Of a stretch of DNA of 64,000 bases, positions 12,826 to 44,932 are shown piece after piece. Origin of the DNA: a virus; IMG/VR virus record IMGVR_UViG_3300028569_000031, positions 1 through 64,000 of that record; one strand, written 5' to 3'. A program made the position numbers and the translations under genes. Under the pieces are notes generated by a model. That model saw only the letters and a program-made list of their open reading frames with translations, was not told the origin of the DNA and made no database searches. How positions within the stretch are numbered: the stretch's first letter is position 1; each line of letters opens with the position of its first letter.

Positions 12826-13950
12826 ATGAATCTTGATCCTAATAAGAATTATCTAACAAACAGTCTTGCAAATATTCAACAGTTTGTAAACTCTGCTGCT
12901 GATGAGTTACGTCATATTGTTTATAAAAGTAAATACGGATATGGATCTGCTTCTGGCCCAGCAGTAAAAAATGTAGCTGAATTAAGAACAGCACCAGAAG
13001 CTTTTGTAGCTTCTGCGGTTGGCGATGTTCTTACAGATCAGTCCCGCAAAGAAATTTGGAAATATACAAATATTCCAAGGATGGCTGGTGAAATTGGTAA
13101 AGCAGTTTCAGCTGCTGCTGGAATGGATCCTGTCACAGGAGCGGTTCTTACAATAGGAGCACCTGCCGTTTTACTTGGACTGAGTGGACGCACAGGACCT
13201 CTTTCTCAAGGTATGCGTCCCAAAGGATATAAAGCCGTTGCACCTGCTTCAAAAGAAAAAGATCCTACAGGTAGAACTCCACAATCAATACCGTTGGAAA
13301 TAGCTTTACGATATGGCTTAGGGCAAACCAGTCAAATCCTTCCTTATCAAGAATTTAAAAAAGAACGTCCAGATGTAGCACCTTCTACATATACTCAATA
13401 TCGTCGATACGAACATTCAAAACCGGAGCCAGGTAAGTTAATTGGTATTGATCCAGAAGGTCAATCTTTTACTACTATTGGAGGATTGGTTCGCGGTAGT
13501 GCAAAAGGATTGAATGATCCTGAAATTAGACTTAAAGGAATGCCTGTTACTTTAAGTGGAGCTCTTGGTACAGCAGCCGGACTTGGCGCTGCTTCTGCAG
13601 CTTATGCTGCCTTACCAATTAAAACAAGATATGCACGTTCTTCTATAGATTTATCTAGATCAGGTCCAACAACAAATCCAATTACAGGACAAGTACAGAC
13701 TGGCGCGGCACGTACATATTCACCTTCTTCTCTTACAACAGCCGGAATTGCGGCTATTGGTTTAGGAACCGCTGTTGCAGTCGGAGCAGCAACAAAAAAA
13801 GTACTTCAGAAAGCAGCAGACAATAGGATTAAAAAAGATAATCCTGTAGAATATTTAAAGCAAAGGCATGGTTCTCTTGAACAAGCAAGTATTGCTTTAG
13901 GTTTACCACAAGCTCAGAGTTGGCAACAACTCACACCCTACGTAAAATAA
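12826..13950 (+). CDS. putative ejection/internal protein with Gly/Ala-rich hydrophobic helices
   Basis: three hydrophobic GA-rich segments. Confidence 0.65.
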   Translation: MNLDPNKNYLTNSLANIQQFVNSAADELRHIVYKSKYGYGSASGPAVKNVAELRTAPEAFVASAVGDVLTDQSRKEIWKYTNIPRMAGEIGKAVSAAAGMDPVTGAVLTIGAPAVLLGLSGRTGPLSQGMRPKGYKAVAPASKEKDPTGRTPQSIPLEIALRYGLGQTSQILPYQEFKKERPDVAPSTYTQYRRYEHSKPEPGKLIGIDPEGQSFTTIGGLVRGSAKGLNDPEIRLKGMPVTLSGALGTAAGLGAASAAYAALPIKTRYARSSIDLSRSGPTTNPITGQVQTGAARTYSPSSLTTAGIAAIGLGTAVAVGAATKKVLQKAADNRIKKDNPVEYLKQRHGSLEQASIALGLPQAQSWQQLTPYVK

Positions 13951-21392: not shown

Positions 21393-21864
21393 TGTAATTG
21401 ATCATTTTGGTGCTGATTGTCCAGCAATTCTTAATGATTATTCTTGCAAAATTGAAGACGCTCTTATTGTTACCAATAACCAGTTAATTCACGCAGTTAA
21501 TCTACTGAAAGAATTATCCGCTGAGCATAAAGCTTACGAGACAATTCTTACAGATCCTGATGTACTTGCTGATTATACTTGCGAGTTCTTCGGTGAAAAC
21601 GGTCCTTACCCTGTTCCCGATGAATCAGTTTCTTACAGCAGGCCTGTAGGTCAACAGTTTGTTAATCCAACTGTTGCTCCTCAGTATCAGCGTCCTGACA
21701 TGCCAGTTCCTCCTCAGCCTCAGCAAACACAAGGCAATCCAGCGGATTTCTGGAATAGTTTTGGTTCGTTGGCTGACCGTGATCCCGCTAATGCATGGCG
21801 CTATTTGAATGCAGCACAACAAAATCCTGATGTATTCCGCCAGAAACTCCTGGTAATGGAATGA
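20857..21864 (+). CDS. putative capsid scaffolding protein
   Basis: GAGG-N6-ATG at 20857; Q/P/S/Y-rich N-half, coiled coil, C-terminal helical motif; upstream of MCP. Confidence 0.65.
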   Translation: MQADTAMPTQSAPQVSQTQPISYAAPVSQTAAYAPTVSTTSQWVAPYQQVTAPAPQMQAQMGVPQTQYSPTASYPQAYQASPQSPQSENPYKEAFNRVVGLLSSPVQFPFQGQQSQTSPQYAPANYSSQAAPQYSNAGTQTYTPGINSNQGYSNGYSQTSQELTREQLQANGVSEASLSVIDHFGADCPAILNDYSCKIEDALIVTNNQLIHAVNLLKELSAEHKAYETILTDPDVLADYTCEFFGENGPYPVPDESVSYSRPVGQQFVNPTVAPQYQRPDMPVPPQPQQTQGNPADFWNSFGSLADRDPANAWRYLNAAQQNPDVFRQKLLVME

Positions 21865-29088: not shown

Positions 29089-31386
29089 ATGCCTTTTGGA
29101 TCTAAAGGTTTTAGTGGTAAGCCATTAAAAAGTTTTGATGGCGGCTTGTCCAAAGGGTTTGAGGATGTTAGTAAACCAGTAATACCTGATTTTCTTTTAG
29201 ATGAAAACCCGTTTAAATTTACCCCTAAAGATTTAAAATACAGAAGCAATATCCGATTCTACGATCAGGATGCGTTGTGGACCAGATGGAGACGTGGTTA
29301 TGAACTATACACAATTACACAAAATGTTTTAGGTTCTTTTTCTCAAGAAAGAGCACAGCGTGGTGATTATAGAATGTACTGCTCATTTCAGCAGTTTCCA
29401 GGTGTATTTATACCTATACGTGTTTTTACTTTTCCCACAACAAATTCAGAACTCGGTAATCAATTAGTCGGCATAAGAGATGCAAACTCATTAAATTTTT
29501 ATAATTTCGGCTTGCCAATACTGGAAGTACGTTACCTAGGGACAGCAAGAAATGCAACATATTCCCAAAGTGGTACAACAATAACAGTTTCAAAACAAGA
29601 TCATGGTTTTTTTGTAGGGGAGAATGTTTACCTTGTGTTTACTTCTGGGGCCGGAGTAAATGCAACACTTCCAATTACTTCAACAACTCAAAACTCTTTT
29701 ACTTGTATTGCTGCTGCACCGTTAACCACAGGAGGTAATTTAACAGTACAATTATCAACAATATTTACAGACACTCGTTGGACTGAGCTCAGAACAAGAC
29801 TTAGAAGTTTACCAACTGCAGCAAGTTTTCTTTTGGGTGAGCGGTTGGTAGATAGGGTGATTGAGAAAGATCCGGGCATATCTGCAACTTATTCAAGAAC
29901 GAGTTCTACGTTAACTGTAACTTGCTCTTCTGTACACGGCCTTTCAACTGGTAACACTGTTTATTTATTAGTTAGTAGCGGGCTTATTACTTCTGGTCAA
30001 TATACTATTACTGTTACTTCAACAACACAGTTTACAATAACAACAATTACTAGCGGCACAACAAGCGGTAATGTAACAGTAATTCGTTTAATAATGGGAT
30101 TTAGATATGATGATTATGTTGGTTATACGGTAAGTGCAATTGATGCAACTTCAAATGAAATTGTTTTTTATCGCACTGATAGTTATGGTGCACAAACAAT
30201 AAACAATAAAACAGAGACAGTGGTACCAGCTTCAAGAGGATTTGAAGTGGGTAGGTTTCTGACAACCGAAGTTCGTTATCAATGTACATGTCAAGATTAT
30301 ACTAGGCGATCAGGATATAATTTTTTTGAAGAGGTAATGCACAAGAAGTTCCCAGTTACTGCAATTGGTTCCACAAAACCTGGTCAGTATCTAGATAAAG
30401 ATGGGTCTTTAATTAATCAACGGGATAATGTAGGTGTTTTTTCGGACTTAGGTCACGTAGCTATTAATAATTTTTATCAACTACCGACTTATGAAGATAC
30501 ATCAGATACATCATTTCCTAATTTAATGTATTATCAATTGAGATGGTGTAAGCATATATACGCCGCAATGTTTTCTTTAAAGCATGATGAAGGAAATTCT
30601 CCGTTATCTATTAGCGCCAAGTATGTTCAATCTGGTGTGAACATTACAATTAACGCAGAAAATCACGGATTACAGGCTAATACAAAAGTTGAACTTGTAT
30701 TTACAAGTGGCGGCGCAACGTCAGGACAGTATACTATTACGCAAATTATTAACAATAATAGTTTTATTATTGTTTATCCATTTTCAAACAACACAAGCGG
30801 TTACTGCGTTGTAGAAAACCTGAAAGAACATGATTATGTTAATACATGGCTTTTAGAACCTAGTGATAAACCTGTCGGTGATTCTTTGGATACATTTTAT
30901 ATATCTTTTGACAAGGAAAATAAAAACTTACGAAAAGCTGCAGAACGTTTTGCCTTGGTTAAGCAGGGTGAAAAGTGGGTTGGCACGCAGTCAATTATAG
31001 GTTCCAGGAACCTGCCAGAAGATGTTGCTAATATTGACCCACAACTTTTGGTAATGTTAATGACTGACGAAATACGTAGAGGGTCTTCAGGAACATTAGA
31101 TAATCAAGGTGTTTTACAAAACAGTACACAAAGAATGATTTCAATGATCAGTAAATTATTAAACTTGCAACCAGAGTTTATTCTTGGCACTAAATTTGCC
31201 ATGTTAGATGAACCTCTGATTAATTACATGCCGACATTCGATGCTGGTGCAATTAGGGGAGGCGCTTATTTAAATGGAACACCTACGGAAGATCCAGCCA
31301 CATTGACCGCTATTAATTGCTCCAGCTATGATCCGTATGTGCAGCAAGATACGGTAGTATCTTCTGGACGTTATATTAATTCTTAA
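29089..31386 (+). CDS. structural protein with three beta-repeat modules and a split SWIM-like zinc finger
   Basis: three Y......IT....HG...G..V.L...SG repeats; YQCTCQDY...WCKHIYA. Confidence 0.6.
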   Translation: MPFGSKGFSGKPLKSFDGGLSKGFEDVSKPVIPDFLLDENPFKFTPKDLKYRSNIRFYDQDALWTRWRRGYELYTITQNVLGSFSQERAQRGDYRMYCSFQQFPGVFIPIRVFTFPTTNSELGNQLVGIRDANSLNFYNFGLPILEVRYLGTARNATYSQSGTTITVSKQDHGFFVGENVYLVFTSGAGVNATLPITSTTQNSFTCIAAAPLTTGGNLTVQLSTIFTDTRWTELRTRLRSLPTAASFLLGERLVDRVIEKDPGISATYSRTSSTLTVTCSSVHGLSTGNTVYLLVSSGLITSGQYTITVTSTTQFTITTITSGTTSGNVTVIRLIMGFRYDDYVGYTVSAIDATSNEIVFYRTDSYGAQTINNKTETVVPASRGFEVGRFLTTEVRYQCTCQDYTRRSGYNFFEEVMHKKFPVTAIGSTKPGQYLDKDGSLINQRDNVGVFSDLGHVAINNFYQLPTYEDTSDTSFPNLMYYQLRWCKHIYAAMFSLKHDEGNSPLSISAKYVQSGVNITINAENHGLQANTKVELVFTSGGATSGQYTITQIINNNSFIIVYPFSNNTSGYCVVENLKEHDYVNTWLLEPSDKPVGDSLDTFYISFDKENKNLRKAAERFALVKQGEKWVGTQSIIGSRNLPEDVANIDPQLLVMLMTDEIRRGSSGTLDNQGVLQNSTQRMISMISKLLNLQPEFILGTKFAMLDEPLINYMPTFDAGAIRGGAYLNGTPTEDPATLTAINCSSYDPYVQQDTVVSSGRYINS

Positions 31387-36173: not shown

Positions 36174-37004
36174 ATGCGTTATATAGGAAACACAACATTA
36201 ACACCTGGTATAAGTTACCAACGTATTGATAATATTGGGTCTAGTTTTAACGGCGTTACAACGTCTTTTCCATTATTAGTTTCTGGTATTTCACCTGTCC
36301 CATTTCCATCTAACCCACAACAGTGTTTAATTTCTGTTAACGGTGTAATTCAAAAGCCAGACCCAACCGGTGCAGCTGGCTTTAATTTAGTGGGTACGAA
36401 CATAGTATTTGCCTCTGCTCCGACAGGAGGTTGGGCTTTCTTCGGGGTTGTTCTTGCTGGGTCTGATTTTGTTGCGGTTGGGGCCAGTTTCCCAGATGGT
36501 TCAAATAGTGCACCGAGTATTACATTTGATAATGCACCAACCACTGGTTTTTATCGCAGCGGCTCAAATGAAATTAGTGTTACTACTGGAGGTGTTCAAC
36601 GTGCTGTTTTTGACGCTAACGGTAATCTTGCTATAGGAGCATCTGTAGGTAATACAAAAATATATGTTCAAGGCACCGGAGCAATGAACATTGCAACTTT
36701 AACCGATGGGTCTACAATTACTCCTGATTTTACAGTTGCCAATAACTTTACAGTCACTTTGACCGGAACACCTCGAACACTTGCTAACCCAACTGGCATG
36801 ACTGTTGGGCAGAGTGGTTTGATTTATATTCTGCAGGATGCAACTGGAAACAGGATTTTAAGTTACGGCAGCCATTGGAAATTCCCTGGCGGCCAATCGT
36901 TTAAAAATTTAACTACTACAGCAAACGCAGTTGACTTAATTGGTTATACTGTACGTACAAGTACAAGCATTGCTTGTCAACTCGTAAACAACCTTACCCA
37001 ATAA
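36174..37004 (+). CDS. tail fibre protein
   Basis: FNG.TT.F.L...ISVNGVIQ.P, GS.SAPSITF; C-terminal domain shared with 33539..35002. Confidence 0.75.
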   Translation: MRYIGNTTLTPGISYQRIDNIGSSFNGVTTSFPLLVSGISPVPFPSNPQQCLISVNGVIQKPDPTGAAGFNLVGTNIVFASAPTGGWAFFGVVLAGSDFVAVGASFPDGSNSAPSITFDNAPTTGFYRSGSNEISVTTGGVQRAVFDANGNLAIGASVGNTKIYVQGTGAMNIATLTDGSTITPDFTVANNFTVTLTGTPRTLANPTGMTVGQSGLIYILQDATGNRILSYGSHWKFPGGQSFKNLTTTANAVDLIGYTVRTSTSIACQLVNNLTQ

Positions 37005-37006
37005 TT

Positions 37007-39472
37007 ATGTCTATTCCAGGTTCTACCAACCCCCTTTTATTATTTGGTGACCCCACTGGCGGACAGTACCAAATACAACGTTCGCTCAGATTCAATAGTA
37101 GTGACAGTGCCTACTTGTCTAAAACCTTCTCATCTTCAGCGACAAGTTCTAGAAAACTTACTTATTCAACTTGGGTAAAACGAGCGGCATTAGATGTTGG
37201 ATCGGTCCAACACTTTGGACTGTCTGCTGCAGTGTCTGGAAGCTCAAGAGACGCTATTAGATTTTCTGGCGACAGTATTCAAGTTTATTTCAATGAAGGA
37301 GCCTCTGGAATCGTAACTACAAACGCAGTATTTCGTGATCTTTCCGCTTGGTATCATATTGTTATTTCAATTGACACCACTAACTCTACCCCCGCTGATC
37401 GGGTCATAATATATGTCAACGGTAGCCGTCAGTCTACTTCTGGAACACAACCCTCTCAGAATTACGACTTTACCGGTTTTCTAGTATCGGGAAAACAGCA
37501 AAACATCGGCAGAAATCCGGCACCCGATTATTATGTAAACGCCTACTTGGCCGATGTATTCCTAATCGACGGCCAGGCATTAACCCCCAGCAGTTTCACA
37601 GAAGTCAGTGCCACTACTGGGCAACTCATACCCAAGGCATACACCGGCACATTTGGTACGAATGGATTCTGGCTGAAGTTCAGCGATAACTCCGCTCTAA
37701 CCAGTGGCAGCAATGTTGGGGTCGGCAAAGATTACTCAGGTAATGCAAATTACTTTAATACTTCTGGCCTCAGCGTTACTGCTGGTGCTGGGAATGACAG
37801 CCTCGTAGACACCCCGACTTCTTACGGCACCGATACCTACGTGGGTGGTGAGGTGAGGGGGAATTACTGCACGTGGAATCCGCTTGATCAAAAAAACTCC
37901 AATACTTTTTCTAATGGCAATCTTGATTGCGTGATTGCTGGGGCAGGAGAAATCTTTGGTACGCAAGGTGTAAGCAGTGGTAAGTGGTATTTTGAAATTG
38001 TTGGCACTGCTACAGCGGATTTCCTTGGTAGGTATGCAATTATTATGGGAGTTTGCAATTTATCAGTTACGCAAACAAGTCGATCTAGTGCAGGGTCGTG
38101 GTTATTCTATACCTATCTGGGGACAAAAATTTCAAACGGAGTGGAAACTTCTTACGGAAACCAAGCAGCATTAAACGCAGTTGTTGGTGTTGCAGTTGAT
38201 CTCGACAACTCAAAAATATGGTTTAGTGTTAATAATACTTGGCAAGCATCAGGAGATCCGGCGGCAGGGACAAACGCTGCGTTTACCAACGTATCTGGAG
38301 TTATTTCTCCTGTTGTATTCAATGGTAGCTCAAACTCTACAAATACTTTCGTATTAAATACAGGTTCTCGCGCATTTGCCTACACCGCCCCCAGCGGCTT
38401 CAAGGCACTATGCGATACCAACCTCGGCGCCCCATTAGTCGCCAAGCCTTCCACTGTATTCGATGTTATTACTTATACCGGCACAGGATCTAGCCTTACG
38501 CTGCCAAATGGTAGTAGTACTCCTACCAGCATTTCATTTACACCAGATTTTGCATGGTTGAAAGGTCGCTCAGGTGCAACAAACCATGCGCTGTATGACG
38601 CAGTCCGTGGTGTGCAAAAAGATTTAGTTAGCAACAGTACGTCTGCTGAAACAACGGAAACCACCGGGTTAACTGCGTTTGGAACTAATACCTTTACTGT
38701 TGGCAGTTTGGCAAAACTGAATACTAGTAGTTCTACATATGTTGCCTGGGCTTGGAATGCTGGCGGCACAACAGATCCTTCCAACACAGCAGGCTCCATC
38801 ACTAGTCAGGTGAGGGCGAATGTTAGTGCTGGGTTTAGCGTTGTTGGATGGACTTCAAACGGCACCTTTGGCATTGAAACAACGGGTCATGGGTTAGGCG
38901 TATCACCGGATTTGATCATTGTAAAAAACAGAGACTCCGGTACTGATCCATGGCAAGTATTTCATTCTTCTTTTAGCAATACAGCCTCCGATTATCTGTT
39001 CTTGAATACAACTGCGGCGAAGGCTACGTCTGGCGCAACTATTTGGACCAGAAGTTCAACAACGTTTGGTTATAGGCAGTCTTCTATTTTCACCAATGGA
39101 CAAAAAGGAATTGCTTACTGCTTCGCCCCAGTAGTCGGGTACTCTTCTTTCGGCAGCTACACCGGCAATGGCAGCGCAGATGGGCCGTTTGTGTATACCG
39201 GATTTAGGCCGAGGTGGATTATGGTGAAACGTACCGATTCTGCAATCCAGTGGACAATTCTGGACACATCTAGAAGCCCCAACAACGTCGCTGATGCTCG
39301 CCTTTTCCCAAACCTAGCTCAGGCAGAGACGGTCAACGGTGACGGCAACACCGATCTGCTTTCAAACGGTTTTAAGCCACGCAACATTGATAGCTCCTTT
39401 AACACAAACGGTGGCACTTACATATTTGCAGCCTTTGCAGAAAACCCATTCCAATACGCCCGTGCCAGGTGA
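37007..39472 (+). CDS. receptor-binding fibre with LamG/concanavalin and SPRY domains
   Basis: RSLRFN, RD.SAWYHIV, SGKWYFE, GVA.DLD..KIWF, YTGNG...GF.P.W, YI..AFAE.PF. Confidence 0.8.
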   Translation: MSIPGSTNPLLLFGDPTGGQYQIQRSLRFNSSDSAYLSKTFSSSATSSRKLTYSTWVKRAALDVGSVQHFGLSAAVSGSSRDAIRFSGDSIQVYFNEGASGIVTTNAVFRDLSAWYHIVISIDTTNSTPADRVIIYVNGSRQSTSGTQPSQNYDFTGFLVSGKQQNIGRNPAPDYYVNAYLADVFLIDGQALTPSSFTEVSATTGQLIPKAYTGTFGTNGFWLKFSDNSALTSGSNVGVGKDYSGNANYFNTSGLSVTAGAGNDSLVDTPTSYGTDTYVGGEVRGNYCTWNPLDQKNSNTFSNGNLDCVIAGAGEIFGTQGVSSGKWYFEIVGTATADFLGRYAIIMGVCNLSVTQTSRSSAGSWLFYTYLGTKISNGVETSYGNQAALNAVVGVAVDLDNSKIWFSVNNTWQASGDPAAGTNAAFTNVSGVISPVVFNGSSNSTNTFVLNTGSRAFAYTAPSGFKALCDTNLGAPLVAKPSTVFDVITYTGTGSSLTLPNGSSTPTSISFTPDFAWLKGRSGATNHALYDAVRGVQKDLVSNSTSAETTETTGLTAFGTNTFTVGSLAKLNTSSSTYVAWAWNAGGTTDPSNTAGSITSQVRANVSAGFSVVGWTSNGTFGIETTGHGLGVSPDLIIVKNRDSGTDPWQVFHSSFSNTASDYLFLNTTAAKATSGATIWTRSSTTFGYRQSSIFTNGQKGIAYCFAPVVGYSSFGSYTGNGSADGPFVYTGFRPRWIMVKRTDSAIQWTILDTSRSPNNVADARLFPNLAQAETVNGDGNTDLLSNGFKPRNIDSSFNTNGGTYIFAAFAENPFQYARAR

Positions 39473-39475
39473 GTA

Positions 39476-39697
39476 GTGAACACGGATACGATGCTGGGGG
39501 CAATGACACGTTTCTTCTCTGACCTTACCAAAAGCATCAGCGAAAAACGCCGCGAACAAATCGAACGCCGCAAAGCCGAGCTTCGGCAACGATTTTCTTC
39601 CAAAACCATCCATCGCCTTGCCGATAACAAACTTTACAAACTCACAGTCGATGGCTGGGTCGAGGTCCAGCCCAGACTCGATTCAGACAGGGCTTGA
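39476..39697 (+). CDS. hypothetical protein
   Basis: 73 aa ORF, GC-richer than flanks. Confidence 0.5.
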   Translation: MNTDTMLGAMTRFFSDLTKSISEKRREQIERRKAELRQRFSSKTIHRLADNKLYKLTVDGWVEVQPRLDSDRA

Positions 39698-39700
39698 CAC

Positions 39701-39834
39701 AAAAGTTTAGAACGCCCCACTTTTAACCCCGTGGAAATCGACGGGTTTGCTGTTTGCAAATAGCGAACAGTCAGGTACTTTTTCATGGATTCACAAATTT
39801 GCAAAATCGTGAAAAAGCCTTAACATGATTAGGC
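39701..39834. repeat. array 1 of heterogeneous imperfect palindromes
   Basis: five inverted repeats of 18-24 nt, mostly abutting. Confidence 0.75.
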
Positions 39835-39878
39835 AGCGAGTATCAGCTCCTGCTGCCGGCCACAATCCTCTGGAGATC

Positions 39879-40184
39879 ATGACCACCGAACTGTACGAGA
39901 TCCGTGACTACGCATACGAGCCAGGATGGGTTCATTACGTCACGGAAACAACCACTTCTATTGCAGACTCTTGGACAACTGCATTACCTCTTGACTCAGA
40001 AAATATTGAGAAGTTTGGTGCAGCAACACCGCCAAAAAGATTTAAAACAAAAGCAGAAGCCAAACCTTATCTTGATGCACTAAAAGCAGCACGTCTAGAA
40101 AATTGGGCAAAAGACGGCTATTTAGATAAAGCACGTGGGCGTTGTCGTCCTGCCTGGAAGATCTATGCTGCTAAAGCCTCCTAG
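39879..40184 (+). CDS. hypothetical protein
   Basis: GGAG RBS before ATG 39879. Confidence 0.6.
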   Translation: MTTELYEIRDYAYEPGWVHYVTETTTSIADSWTTALPLDSENIEKFGAATPPKRFKTKAEAKPYLDALKAARLENWAKDGYLDKARGRCRPAWKIYAAKAS

Positions 40185-40420
40185 TCCTTGGCTCTACTCA
40201 CCCGTGGAAGCCAAAGGGCTACCGATCAAGTACTGTGCACATACTGCACATTGCAACTCTCTGGAAATTCCGGACAGTTCAGGTGTGCCTAGTAGTCCCG
40301 CACACTAGTCCGGTCAACTACGATTGGGCTGGGTTGTAATTTTCTAGTACTTATTCAAAGAAAGCGGCTCAATTTTGAATAAGCCTCAATCTTATTCAAG
40401 TTTGACGCGGTAAAATAAGG
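40182..40420. repeat. array 2 of heterogeneous imperfect palindromes/hairpins
   Basis: seven inverted repeats of 23-40 nt in 240 nt. Confidence 0.75.
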
Positions 40421-40437
40421 CTGCTTATCACCAATCC

Positions 40438-40695
40438 ATGACTAACCCCGCTCCAGTAGCAACTATTCTTACAGTTTCTATCCACCGAACAAGTACGAAT
40501 CCTGTCCATGGCCGTGGGGTCCTACAGATTTCTATTGACGACGAAGGCGCAGGAGGTTTTATAAAAATACGTGAATTAGGTGATGATCTAGATAATTGCG
40601 TGCGCCTGGATGCTGATGAACTGGATTTGGTTTTCCAGGAAGCCAAAAAACTTATTGATCAGAAAACACTGCTTCCTTTTAAGGATCTGATTTAG
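40438..40695 (+). CDS. hypothetical phage protein
   Basis: SIDDEGAGGFI...RLD.DEL motif. Confidence 0.65.
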   Translation: MTNPAPVATILTVSIHRTSTNPVHGRGVLQISIDDEGAGGFIKIRELGDDLDNCVRLDADELDLVFQEAKKLIDQKTLLPFKDLI

Positions 40696-41147: not shown

Positions 41148-42227
41148 TCAACCAATAGAAGGTGCAGTAAGAGCAACAGAAGTTAACTCAGAAGCAGCAA
41201 GATCTAAAGGAAAGTTATGAGCATTTCTTTCATGCATTACTTCTAAACCAAGTCCAGCACGGTTCAGAATATCCGCCCAAGTTGGTACAACACGGTTCTG
41301 ACTGTCAACAATTGACTGGTTAAAATTAAATCCATTAAGATTAAACGCCATTGTAGAAACACCTAGAGCAGTGAACCAGATGCCAACAACCGGCCAAGCA
41401 GCTAAGAAAAAGTGAAGTGAACGACTGTTGTTGAACGAAGCATACTGGAAAATAAGTCTTCCAAAGTACCCGTGAGCAGCAACAATGTTGTAGGTCTCTT
41501 CTTCTTGGCCAAACTTATAGCCGTAGTTATGCGATTCATTCTCTGTGGTTTCACGAACCAAGCTGGAGGTAACCAATGAACCGTGCATTGCACTAAACAA
41601 GCTGCCACCAAACACACCTGCTACGCCGAGCATGTGGAAGGGGTGCATAAGAATGTTATGCTCAGCTTGGAACACCAACATGTAGTTGAATGTACCAGAG
41701 ATACCCAATGGCATCGCATCAGAAAAAGAACCTTGACCGAAAGGATATACAAGGAATACAGCAGTCGCAGCAGCAACAGGTGCTGAGTAAGCAACGCAGA
41801 TCCAAGGGCGCATTCCTAATCGATAGCTAAGTTCCCATTCGCGTCCCATGTAAGCAAAGATGCCAATGAGGAAGTGGAATACGACGAGTTGGAACGGCCC
41901 GCCGTTGTAGAGCCATTCATCAAGGGAAGCAGCTTCCCAAATTGGATAGAAATGTAATCCGATTGCATTTGAGGAGGGGACAACCGCTCCTGAAATAATG
42001 TTGTTTCCATAAAGTAAAGAGCCAGATACAGGCTCGCGGATCCCATCTATATCGACAGGTGGAGCACCAATAAAAGCTATGGTGAAGCAGACGGTAGCAG
42101 CAAGAAGTGTTGGAATCATTAGGACTCCAAACCAACCAACGTATATCCGATTTTCAGTTGAGGTTACCCAACGGCAAAATTGTTGCCATAGGTTCGTTTG
42201 TTCTTGTAAGGCAATTGAAGCAGTCAC
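41148..42227 (-). CDS. psbA: photosystem II D1 protein
   Basis: intact 359 aa D1 ([32 protein letters not shown]); GTG start, no intron. Confidence 0.99.
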
Positions 42228-42269
42228 TTTTAAAAGGGTAGGTATGAGTCCGGGGGACGAACGGGTTGT

Positions 42270-42342
42270 GTTATTCCCACATCACCCTCAGATGCGGGTA
42301 TTAGAGATGATTTACTTCTGATGATCTCGGTTTCAGAAGTGT
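42270..42342 (-). ncRNA. PhotoRC-II-like leader RNA
   Basis: ACUUCUGA/UCAGAAGU stem, loop GAGAU pairs with downstream AUCUC, then CCCGCAUC-UGAGGGU-GAUGUGGG; upstream of psbA. Confidence 0.75.
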
Positions 42343-42498
42343 AAGGAATTGTAAAGTTTTATCTTCATTCCCTGACTTATTCAGTATAGCTTGTTTAAAC
42401 ACAAATTGTGGGGGTGACCGAAGAACTTAAGTGGCTAAGAGTTCCTAAAGTGTACTAAAAAAACAAGTCTATAATTAGTAAAGAAAGGCTCAATTCAG

Positions 42499-44080: not shown

Positions 44081-44932
44081 TTATAAAACAGGCATTTCAT
44101 ACTCCTGAGTAACGTTTACATAATGCTTCCAAATAACTTCTGAACTGTTACCTGCCCAGTTTGCAACTTGTGCTACCGGAATCTGAGCTTCAATCCACCG
44201 GCTAATTGCCGTATGCCGCAAGTCATACGGTCTATACCTATTTTGAATAAGTTTTTCTTCATGCAACTCTTTCATTCGATCATAAAAATAACTTTGAAAC
44301 GCATACCTATTCCAAGGGAAAATATATTCACTAGTTTTTGATACGGCTTCCATGATTTCTTGGCACCTATTATTTAAAGGAACCCACCGTTTCCTATTTG
44401 TTTTTGTTGAATTTTTATACCCATGAGTAAGAGTATAGTTACTATGTACAAGGATTTTATTTTCTTTTATATCTTCCCATTTAAGTGCACGCACTTCGCC
44501 AGTACGCATTGCGGTTTGCAACATAAACTCAGAATAGAATGCCCAGTTAGCCCCGTTACGGGCTTGTTTTGATCCAAGTGCTTTCAGAACTAACTCTGTT
44601 TCTTGCCGTGGAATTACAATAATATCTACATCTTCCTGCGGTGGTTTTGGCATTTTAAAACTAACAATTGGGTTCTTATCAATTAACCTAATATCTTCAC
44701 TAGATGCCCAACGATATAACGATTTTATGTACATTGTTACACGCCGACTAGATTTAACAGGTTTTTGACTTAATATCCATGTTAATATTTTTCTTCCTTC
44801 ATTCAAATCTGTAATTGGACATTTGTTTAACCAGTTACCCACCTGCCTGTAGTCTGCAACCAGACTGGTCGGACATAGTGCAATGGCTCTTTCAGTTTTG
44901 AATTGCTCCCAGGCTTCAAGTAGTGTTGTCAT
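44081..44932 (-). CDS. int: tyrosine recombinase/integrase
   Basis: AMRTGEVRALKW (R), TKT (K), YDLRHT, WAGNS, KHY (Y nucleophile). Confidence 0.9.
   Translation of the reverse strand: MTTLLEAWEQFKTERAIALCPTSLVADYRQVGNWLNKCPITDLNEGRKILTWILSQKPVKSSRRVTMYIKSLYRWASSEDIRLIDKNPIVSFKMPKPPQEDVDIIVIPRQETELVLKALGSKQARNGANWAFYSEFMLQTAMRTGEVRALKWEDIKENKILVHSNYTLTHGYKNSTKTNRKRWVPLNNRCQEIMEAVSKTSEYIFPWNRYAFQSYFYDRMKELHEEKLIQNRYRPYDLRHTAISRWIEAQIPVAQVANWAGNSSEVIWKHYVNVTQEYEMPVL

Follow-up and report, generated by a model that had tools for sequence, protein, structure and literature searches.

What are the inverted repeats that crowd both sides of one small gene in a cyanophage of lake water, and what might they do for the phage? 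The gene (39879–40184, plus strand, 101 aa) lies in IMGVR_UViG_3300028569_000031, a 78-kb IMG/VR record with an estimated completeness of 91%, whose first 64 kb were analysed here and are called the window; the sequencing runs that contain the record come from lake and freshwater metagenomes. The two spacers studied, 39698–39878 and 40185–40437, flank this gene within the gene-variable segment between the tail fibre gene (36974–39472) and psbA (41148–42227, minus strand). A preliminary description of this DNA had reported about 12 different imperfect palindromes in 39701–40420, had read them as protein-binding sites resembling segments of KilA-N and RhuM genes, and had proposed that the phage collected binding sites of several host defence-associated DNA-binding proteins, as a titrating sponge or as captured modules. 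All of the repeats it listed are present, and the conceptual translations that it quoted, including the in-frame TAG, are correct. Contigs, loci and genes fetched for comparison are labelled with L and a number.

Palindromes are in excess at this locus, as had been expected. Both their counts and their coverage are 2–3 times those of dinucleotide shuffles in both spacers (p ~0.003–0.04, depending on the settings), and the open reading frame (ORF) between the two spacers has no excess over such shuffles. Coverage here is in the top 1–4% of the genome's 250-nt segments, a rank that other segments reach equally. Across the 78-kb genome we found 23 palindromes of 24/25 bp (at least 10 of 12 pairs) versus ~8.5 in shuffles, and four of the 23 fall in the 720-bp stretch 39701–40420. 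Further long palindromes at 13736–13759, 21652–21676, and 30751–30774 lie inside ORFs of the structural region; one has the centre GGAATT and one ends in AAC..GTT, and all three may be in-frame elements related to the same families.

Comparison with other genomes showed that four or five of the window units represent, as stand-alone copies, palindrome classes whose further members are spread over dozens to more than 100 unrelated phage genomes. Roughly one half of the repeats listed earlier consists instead of lineage-specific expression or junction modules: hairpins that look like terminators, a leader that is conserved, and a cassette that resembles a promoter and carries CTTAT half-sites. 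The spacers are patchworks of short, sharply bounded, portable DNA modules. Resemblance to palindromes that RhuM and KilA-N genes carry within themselves was confirmed for three units (39721–39748, 40232–40252, and 40255–40279), of which the first deviates from its class in the centre and the second in the spacer, and a slot for a Bro-N-type palindrome was recognized indirectly, via relatives.

The 25-bp unit at 40255–40279, AACTCTCTGGAA-A-TTCCGGACAGTT, is an odd palindrome with AAC..GTT termini, its centre being the A/T of AAATT, and is the sole AAC..GTT palindromic 25-mer in the genome (0.05 expected). Its 18-nt core occurs in >115 IMG/VR contigs (a lower bound), in all three reading frames as well as in non-coding DNA. 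Among the matches listed, 94 distinct flank contexts show near-total conservation within AAC..GTT, which is gone 1–2 bases outside, where the information content is zero; the core hardly varies, nor do the outer AAC/GTT triplets, and arm positions 4–5 are often unpaired. The two arm mismatches of the window copy correspond to a relaxed position and to a tolerated T variant (9 of the 94 copies). The palindrome does not extend into the flanks, and there is no target-site duplication around the 94 copies, so a transposon-like insertion was rejected. Other DNA in common with the window genome was found in only 7 of the 273 palindrome-bearing loci. Four of the 47 long frames scanned that hold the core are RhuM genes, and the others include portal, tape-measure, SSB, methylase, and reductase genes. 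The RhuM-type palindrome is also read in frame (..PEIPDSS..) in unrelated long ORFs among L040–L153, including ribonucleotide reductase, YqaJ, and gp59-like ones (e.g. L048:1775–8842, L053:794–2251, and L044:7904–10258), and a ~490-aa ORF of L053, L054, L086, and L141 holds two different palindrome classes 73 nt apart.

RhuM has been proposed as the toxin of restriction–modification loci (PMC3710099), and it matches the PADLOC defence candidate PDC-S05. A RhuM gene is present in 180 of 401 sampled Verrucomicrobiota genomes, often in several copies, and 30 RhuM genes were fetched from this set. In 26 of the 30, a long palindrome, nearly always of the 25-bp AAC-N19-GTT type, stands at the first codons of the RhuM domain (..ATxxKFxxVQ..), and its core varies among genes with both arms changing together. 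The CCGGAA-A-TTCCGG core of the window unit is found in RhuM genes L154, L156, L164, and L183, with wider flanks in L174, and also in RhuM ORFs of L045, L066, L099, and L153. The suggested likeness of 40255–40279 to the RhuM segment ATVRKFRTVQ is thus upheld by both the in-gene architecture and the core. Helix motifs of RhuM track the core class, T[VI]NEH going with CCGGAA, NISMH with TTAAGAA, and NVSLH with GTCAAGG. In 21 RhuM genes, core identity correlated with the 60 residues before the palindrome (Spearman 0.24, p 5e-4) compared to 0.04 for the 60 residues after it, values that ignore relatedness among the sequences. Since changes in the core go along with changes in the helix-turn-helix encoded directly before it, these data suggest that the in-gene RhuM palindrome may be the protein's own docking site.

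Abutting this unit is a second RhuM-type palindrome at 40232–40252, of the class AATGTGCA-N5-TGCACATT. It matches the class in 15 of 16 arm bases and in the right flank GC, with one arm base different and an atypical spacer, CATAC; by our own arithmetic, the chance of a 15/16 arm match in 720 nt is ~1e-5. The class is present in 102 IMG/VR contigs, mostly free-standing and mostly with AAAAA or AAATT as spacer, and a few copies lie in RhuM ORFs with ..NVQKMHIANSDKP.. (..NVQKMHIA..), in agreement with the resemblance to the RhuM segment SNVQKMHIA that had been recognized in translation. Both units correspond to the same RhuM codons and therefore do not derive from one gene fragment. The stretch 40234–40274 is 97.6% identical in L002, within otherwise unalignable DNA. 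In L002 (4376–4560) both RhuM-type units are inside a small ORF (MSDTTPWDEYCEASLDL..), whose L015 homologue ends differently, and the same frame (..CAHTAHCNSLEIPDSS..) is kept in the window only as a 57-aa GTG ORF (40135–40308, plus strand).

The unit at 39721–39748, TTTTAACCCCGT-GGAAATCG-ACGGGTTT, is of KilA-N type. In 10 of 14 KilA-N genes, a GAATTC-centred palindrome stands at a constant offset within the domain and its arms change together; this in-gene type is even, with flanks TTTTAA../..TTAAAA. Of its 28 bases, the window unit has 25 in common with the palindrome inside KilA-N gene L351, in line with the proposed resemblance to the KilA-N segment FNPVEFDGF; L353 has the same class, which reads F-N-P-V-E-F-D-G. 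The centre of the window unit is GGAAATCG, not CGAATTCG, and this GAAATC centre recurs in the free-standing copies L184, L186–190, L343, and L344. Free-standing members of the class occur in 13 IMG/VR contigs, representing ~5 unrelated contexts, always outside long ORFs. The class is also found in 2 of the 401 Verrucomicrobiota genomes (0.005 expected, our arithmetic): one copy precedes the start codon of a KilA-N gene by ~30 nt, and the second lies within a sulfatase-like ORF, in its reading frame. In the latter (L344:1501–1523, genome G025), the exact 23-mer of 39725–39747 is read as ..KPVDFHGV.. within a 635-aa product. Among GTDB species representatives there were two hits for 39721–39748, both in unrelated non-cyanobacterial ORFs and about the number expected by chance. 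Other palindrome classes, including one of RhuM type, lie 100–170 nt before the KilA-N domain match in L343, L347, and L353, and RhuM-type palindromes or cores occur upstream of some KilA-N and Bro-N genes (L347, L364, L367, and L383). In four unrelated viral contigs (L186, L187, L189, and L190) the 23-mer is followed directly by a second palindrome, TTTCCATATTGGAAA, which resembles the core of a RhuM class (L166), so that arrays of mixed type are not confined to this lineage.

Bro-N genes show the same design of in-gene palindrome as RhuM and KilA-N genes. The 24-bp palindrome TTCAC..GTGAA at 39790–39813, which overlaps a weak −35-like TTGCAA, occupies the slot of the relatives' Bro-N-type palindrome ACCATTTTC..GAAAATGGT, whose arms match the in-gene palindrome of Bro-N gene L385. 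In alignment A1 the right half of the window unit is homologous to the relatives' right arm and the left half is new, with the symmetry restored; the window unit itself, in which the right half alone is retained, has no match to the in-gene Bro-N class. Across the lineage the slots are kept and the units in them turn over, the behaviour that had been looked for at this locus in related phages. The odd palindrome CTGTTTGC-AAATA-GCGAACAG at 39750–39770 belongs to a widespread free-standing phage class found in 51 IMG/VR contigs, 28 of them with distinct flanks, and in L326 it stands in tandem with a KilA-N-type unit, as in the window. Elsewhere this class, CTATTYGCAAATAGCRAAYAG, occurs in the tRNA arrays of at least 12 phage contigs that otherwise differ (including L295, L299, L304, L305, L315, L316, L321, L333, L336, and L339), where it either fills the 20–27-nt gap separating tRNA-Met(CAT) from tRNA-Ile(TAT) or immediately precedes tRNA-Tyr.

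The explanation that we favour, with a probability of roughly 0.6, is that the units would be double-stranded docking sites for dimeric KilA-N/RhuM-type domains, encoded by the host or by resident mobile elements. Sequence recognition fits the 40255–40279 class better than stem stability, because the outer triplets and the core are invariant and arm positions 4–5 are relaxed. Searches for RhuM, KilA-N, and Bro-N genes gave no match in the window genome, as represented by the 91%-complete record, whereas the search control did yield a RhuM match in E. coli. With three units matching RhuM or KilA-N in a phage record that shows no such gene, it is reasonable to read these units, as had been proposed, as sites of other organisms' proteins that the phage collected. 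This reading is not supported for about half of the ~12 repeats, which are lineage-specific modules, nor for 39750–39770, which was not traced to these families. Taken as a whole, the explanation up to this point (portable-module spacers, stand-alone palindrome copies, and docking sites) stands slightly better than an even chance.

The benefit to the phage is a more tentative matter. The likeliest one, which we nevertheless put forward as a conjecture, would be mimicry of the 'self' sites of KilA-N/RhuM genes, blunting or titrating the proteins, as the DNA element aba does for the KilA-N-domain protein BstA. The array might then act as a multi-specificity 'immunity-mimic', composed of self-palindromes of several KilA-N, RhuM, and (in relatives) Bro-N proteins and neutralising proteins of the host or of prophages, a possibility that we hold just as cautiously. 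Copies amplified by phage replication would dock and neutralise these proteins, an aba-like counter-defence made of DNA only, and the 21–28-bp modules would be exchanged between phages.

Several observations weigh against the docking of KilA-N/RhuM-type domains. The correlation of RhuM cores with upstream residues takes no account of relatedness among the sequences, and among 2.9 million viral contigs each class turns up in only ~100. The missing part of the 91%-complete record could contain a cognate phage gene. The copies in the window have imperfections, and in L002 the counterpart of 40255–40279 has lost its outer right arm, so some copies may be decaying. No link to any gene family was found for the 39750–39770 class, whose position in tRNA spacers elsewhere also argues the other way. 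Finally, the plus strand folds far better as RNA than the minus strand, with z values of −2.9 and, in the right spacer, −5.7, versus −1.3 and −2.0 (right) for the minus strand, and 39721–39748 is located exactly where a terminator would be expected; an RNA-level role, alongside docking or instead of it, is therefore possible.

These last observations lead to the best surviving alternative, in which the units are only expression signals or recombination joints, RNA hairpins acting as terminators or in processing or stability and linkers for accessory-gene swaps like those attributed to the promoter/stem-loop cassettes of T4-type phages, and the likeness to RhuM and KilA-N reflects shared mobile hairpins without protein docking. 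Besides the strand bias of folding in both spacers, it can draw on the relatives, in which the 39721–39748 class follows the tail-fibre stop codon by 20–40 nt. The preliminary description had held that most of the palindromes lack a U tail. This is right for most units, since 40232–40279, 39750–39770, and 39790–39813 have no U tract, and wrong for two hairpins that pass a terminator scan, albeit a lenient one: 39728–39745, which is followed by TTTGCTGTTT, and 40305–40332. Breakpoints at module edges (in L026/L027, in L002, and at the joint 39770>40241 of a metatranscriptome contig), the occupation of tRNA spacers by the 39750–39770 class, and leader and promoter-like cassettes that precede different genes point in the same direction. 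Contigs from RNA libraries cover 39543–39817 and 40177–40338 in part, and as contigs they report neither transcription nor transcript ends. On the other side, the invariant AAC/GTT and core with unpaired arm positions 4–5 form a pattern of recognition, not of stem stability, and most units are without the U tract of a terminator. Elements of this kind also stand in frame inside portal, tape-measure, SSB, methylase, and reductase genes, where a terminator would be harmful, and the RhuM core classes co-vary with the helix-turn-helix. We therefore regard an exclusively RNA-level or recombinational role as unlikely, while still the most serious competitor.

Docking sites could also serve the defender. 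RhuM and KilA-N proteins would then have evolved to recognise phage sites or hitch-hiking elements, the in-gene copy would provide auto-control, and the array would be a liability to the phage or neutral. The same palindrome identity and co-variation that support docking for the benefit of the phage are equally compatible with this view, free-standing copies are rare per class, and BstA localises to phage replication sites (PMC8585504), so such domains can seek phage DNA. A liability should be lost fast, yet the units are 95–98% identical between relatives versus 85–88% for coding DNA, and several classes are stacked in one spacer. Sites that work for the defender thus seem less probable again than expression signals.

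Less plausible still is that the units are inert, decaying remnants of RhuM/KilA-N gene fragments left by illegitimate recombination. The imperfect arms, the atypical spacer of 40232–40252, the truncated copy in L002, and the degenerate neighbouring modules at 40186–40217 and 40283–40307 would suit such an origin. Flanking RhuM or KilA-N coding sequence would then be expected; instead, the flanks are unconserved in the 94 contexts among the matches listed, and 40232–40252 and 40255–40279, representing the same RhuM codons, cannot come from one gene. The 'RhuM-like' and 'KilA-N-like' translations of the window gave no Pfam hit even at E up to 10, so the likeness is in the DNA only and is not that of a leftover gene.

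Hardly credible, finally, are integron-like cassette recombination sites driven by the tyrosine recombinase encoded 3.7 kb away (44081–44932), with TAGTC..CACTA motifs or the 9-7-9 palindrome 40375–40399 as candidates: TAGTC-type motifs do recur at gene junctions of relatives and 40375–40399 has the arm/spacer geometry of a recombinase core site, yet plus-strand TAGTC occurs only three times in the spacers and at none of the island's other gene junctions, the Xer-like hits of the recombinase are weak and far under family cut-offs, and the widespread palindromes, in hundreds of contigs, have no conserved partner sequence in the fetched flanks, so an attC/cassette array was rejected.

A small ORF after the tail-fibre gene (39476–39697, plus strand; likely true start ATG 39503) has no protein-family match and is absent in L026/L027, and its homologue in L082 begins MVRPFSELTKDF. 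The AAAAGT..ACTTTT repeat at 39701–39724, preceding the KilA-N-type palindrome, is a lineage-specific module whose sequence AAGTTTnGAACGCCCC recurs in relatives only (L024, L026, L027, L301, and L341). At the other end of the spacer is a conserved cassette (39817–39878, plus strand), single-copy in this genome, with a −10-like TAACAT, a leader hairpin at 39832–39857, GGCCACAATCC, and GGAGAT 4 nt before ATG 39879. The leader 39832–39884 is 83–89% identical in eight contigs, and the proteins downstream diverge after ~7 codons. The first 18 codons of a 119-aa ORF are this conserved non-coding leader, common to other contigs, and the gene accordingly most likely starts at ATG 39879. Both promoter-like sites score under the threshold of a scan for sigma-70 promoters, and in relatives a good TTGACC sits 24 nt from the −10-like hexamer; we therefore only infer a promoter role for the cassette. 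The 101-aa gene between the two arrays has a homologue in L002 that is 83% identical, is reduced to its last ~15 codons in L026/L027, and matched no family in Pfam, PHROGs, or NCBIfam, with weak hits in the protein atlas.

Four modules of the right spacer, all on the plus strand, have counterparts or traces in relatives. The first, 40186–40217, is a decayed copy of the relatives' module TAGTCCTTGGCT..CCCGTGGAAATCGACGG (cf. L012/L024 position 334), in which the inner hairpin has degenerated and pairing is instead between CCTTGGCT and AGCCAAAGG. A GTGTGC..GCACAC hairpin at 40283–40307 contains AGTCCCGCACACTA and is the remnant of a leader module: in L012, L014, and L082, AGTCCCGCACACTA leads straight to the ..AATCAC-ATG of a gene, and no gene follows it in the window. 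It is overlapped by a terminator-like hairpin with G-U pairs (40305–40342; 11 pairs, T-rich tail GTTGTAATTT), of which 40305–40332 is the part passing the scan. The conserved junction motif TAGTCCGGTCAACT heads a portable cassette in L012, L014, L015, L016, and L029, and different genes follow the segment from TAGTCCGGTCAACT to GCGGTAAAATAAGG in L016 and L029. Five CTTAT/ATAAG half-sites occupy 40350–40428, forming the palindromes 40350–40383, 40375–40399, and 40391–40419 and an ATAAG-N4-CTTAT at 40415–40428; the first 41 nt of this region are a window-specific duplication (repeat family D1), and its part from GCGGTAAAATAAGG to the ATG is common to L016 and L029. The half-sites surround a −10-like TAAAAT (40411–40416) upstream of an 85-aa ORF (40438–40695, plus strand), whose homologues are 80–86% identical in eight contigs and which belongs to one PHROG without an assigned function; the half-sites may act as operator or recombinase sites. 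In relatives, three tandem 21-nt units (GCTCCCCTCGATCCAGCGGCA-like) that the window does not have follow a second copy of the KilA-N-type palindrome (L012:340–425 and L016:3520–3605). In L016:3221–3664 and L029:11063–11350, ~300–440 nt after the tail fibre are non-coding and hold conserved modules, including a long inverted repeat, TTAACGGATTGG..CTAATCCGTGA, which could be a small RNA.

Elsewhere in the window we identified genes for the large terminase, major head protein, endolysin, primase, and the short tyrosine recombinase, which is a 283-aa product encoded on the minus strand inside an accessory island and has a homologue in L082 with 70% nucleotide identity. The PhotoRC-II leader of psbA (42263–42354) is the sole Rfam match in the window, and Rfam covariance models gave no match in 39450–40500 at E up to 5. 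Nothing similar to the spacers or the small gene was found in isolated phages. A replication origin at the array was also considered and rejected, as the GC skew has no turning point here.

What is new at this locus is a stacked array drawn from several families in a cyanophage without these genes, the turnover of units slot by slot in its relatives, and the class that occupies tRNA spacers. If the interpretation is right, RhuM, KilA-N, and Bro-N, which are very common, poorly understood, and defence-linked, would each carry a readable 'address' in the gene, and phages would counter these families merely by copying that address. The palindrome class of a phage would then name the defence variant it has met, giving a phage–host link from sequence. 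Should the decoy proposal fail, the data still define sharply bounded palindrome families that move among unrelated phages, into spacers, tRNA arrays, and reading frames, a movement for which no mechanism is known.

To place the array among known systems, we compared it with five kinds of element. The PeSL cassettes (early promoter plus stem-loop) of T4-type phages, reportedly described by Arbiol et al. in 2010, resemble the spacers in being short conserved non-coding modules beside small accessory genes in a hyperplastic region with apparent gene shuffling. They differ in that no common promoter consensus was found here and the units are long palindromes of many classes, which are also found in unrelated phages and bacterial genes. 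Rickettsia palindromic elements, REP, and Correia elements are multicopy and confined to a genome or lineage. Like the window units, they are palindromic DNA with sharp boundaries that turns up in unrelated settings, among them in-frame insertions into protein genes; in contrast, the window classes usually have one copy per phage, extend over very different phages, and are linked to a DNA-binding gene family. Operators of the lambda OR/OL type are likewise clustered imperfect palindromes around promoter-like sites, and the CTTAT half-sites at 40350–40428 fit this description, whereas the palindromes of the array are all different rather than variants of one consensus, and no repressor gene is linked to them.

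The palindromes inside RhuM, KilA-N, and Bro-N genes, for which we found no describing paper in the open-access literature, are as long as the window units and have the same termini (AAC..GTT or TTTTAA..GAATTC..), with the centre and the core classes also in common. The window copies are distinguished by being non-coding, imperfect, and stacked, in a cyanophage without these genes. The last system is BstA of the Salmonella prophage BTP1 (Owen et al. 2021), a KilA-N-domain abortive-infection protein that is cancelled by the cognate DNA element aba in its own locus (PMC8585504). The aba element is 63 bp long with terminal direct repeats and spans the gene start; it works as DNA and protects another phage when transferred, with a specificity that differs between variants (PMC8585504). 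The likeness lies in a KilA-N-type DNA-binding defence protein paired with a short cognate DNA element in its own locus. By comparison, the window elements are 21–28-bp palindromes that elsewhere lie inside the domain-coding sequence, and in this phage they stand alone, in several classes, without the gene.

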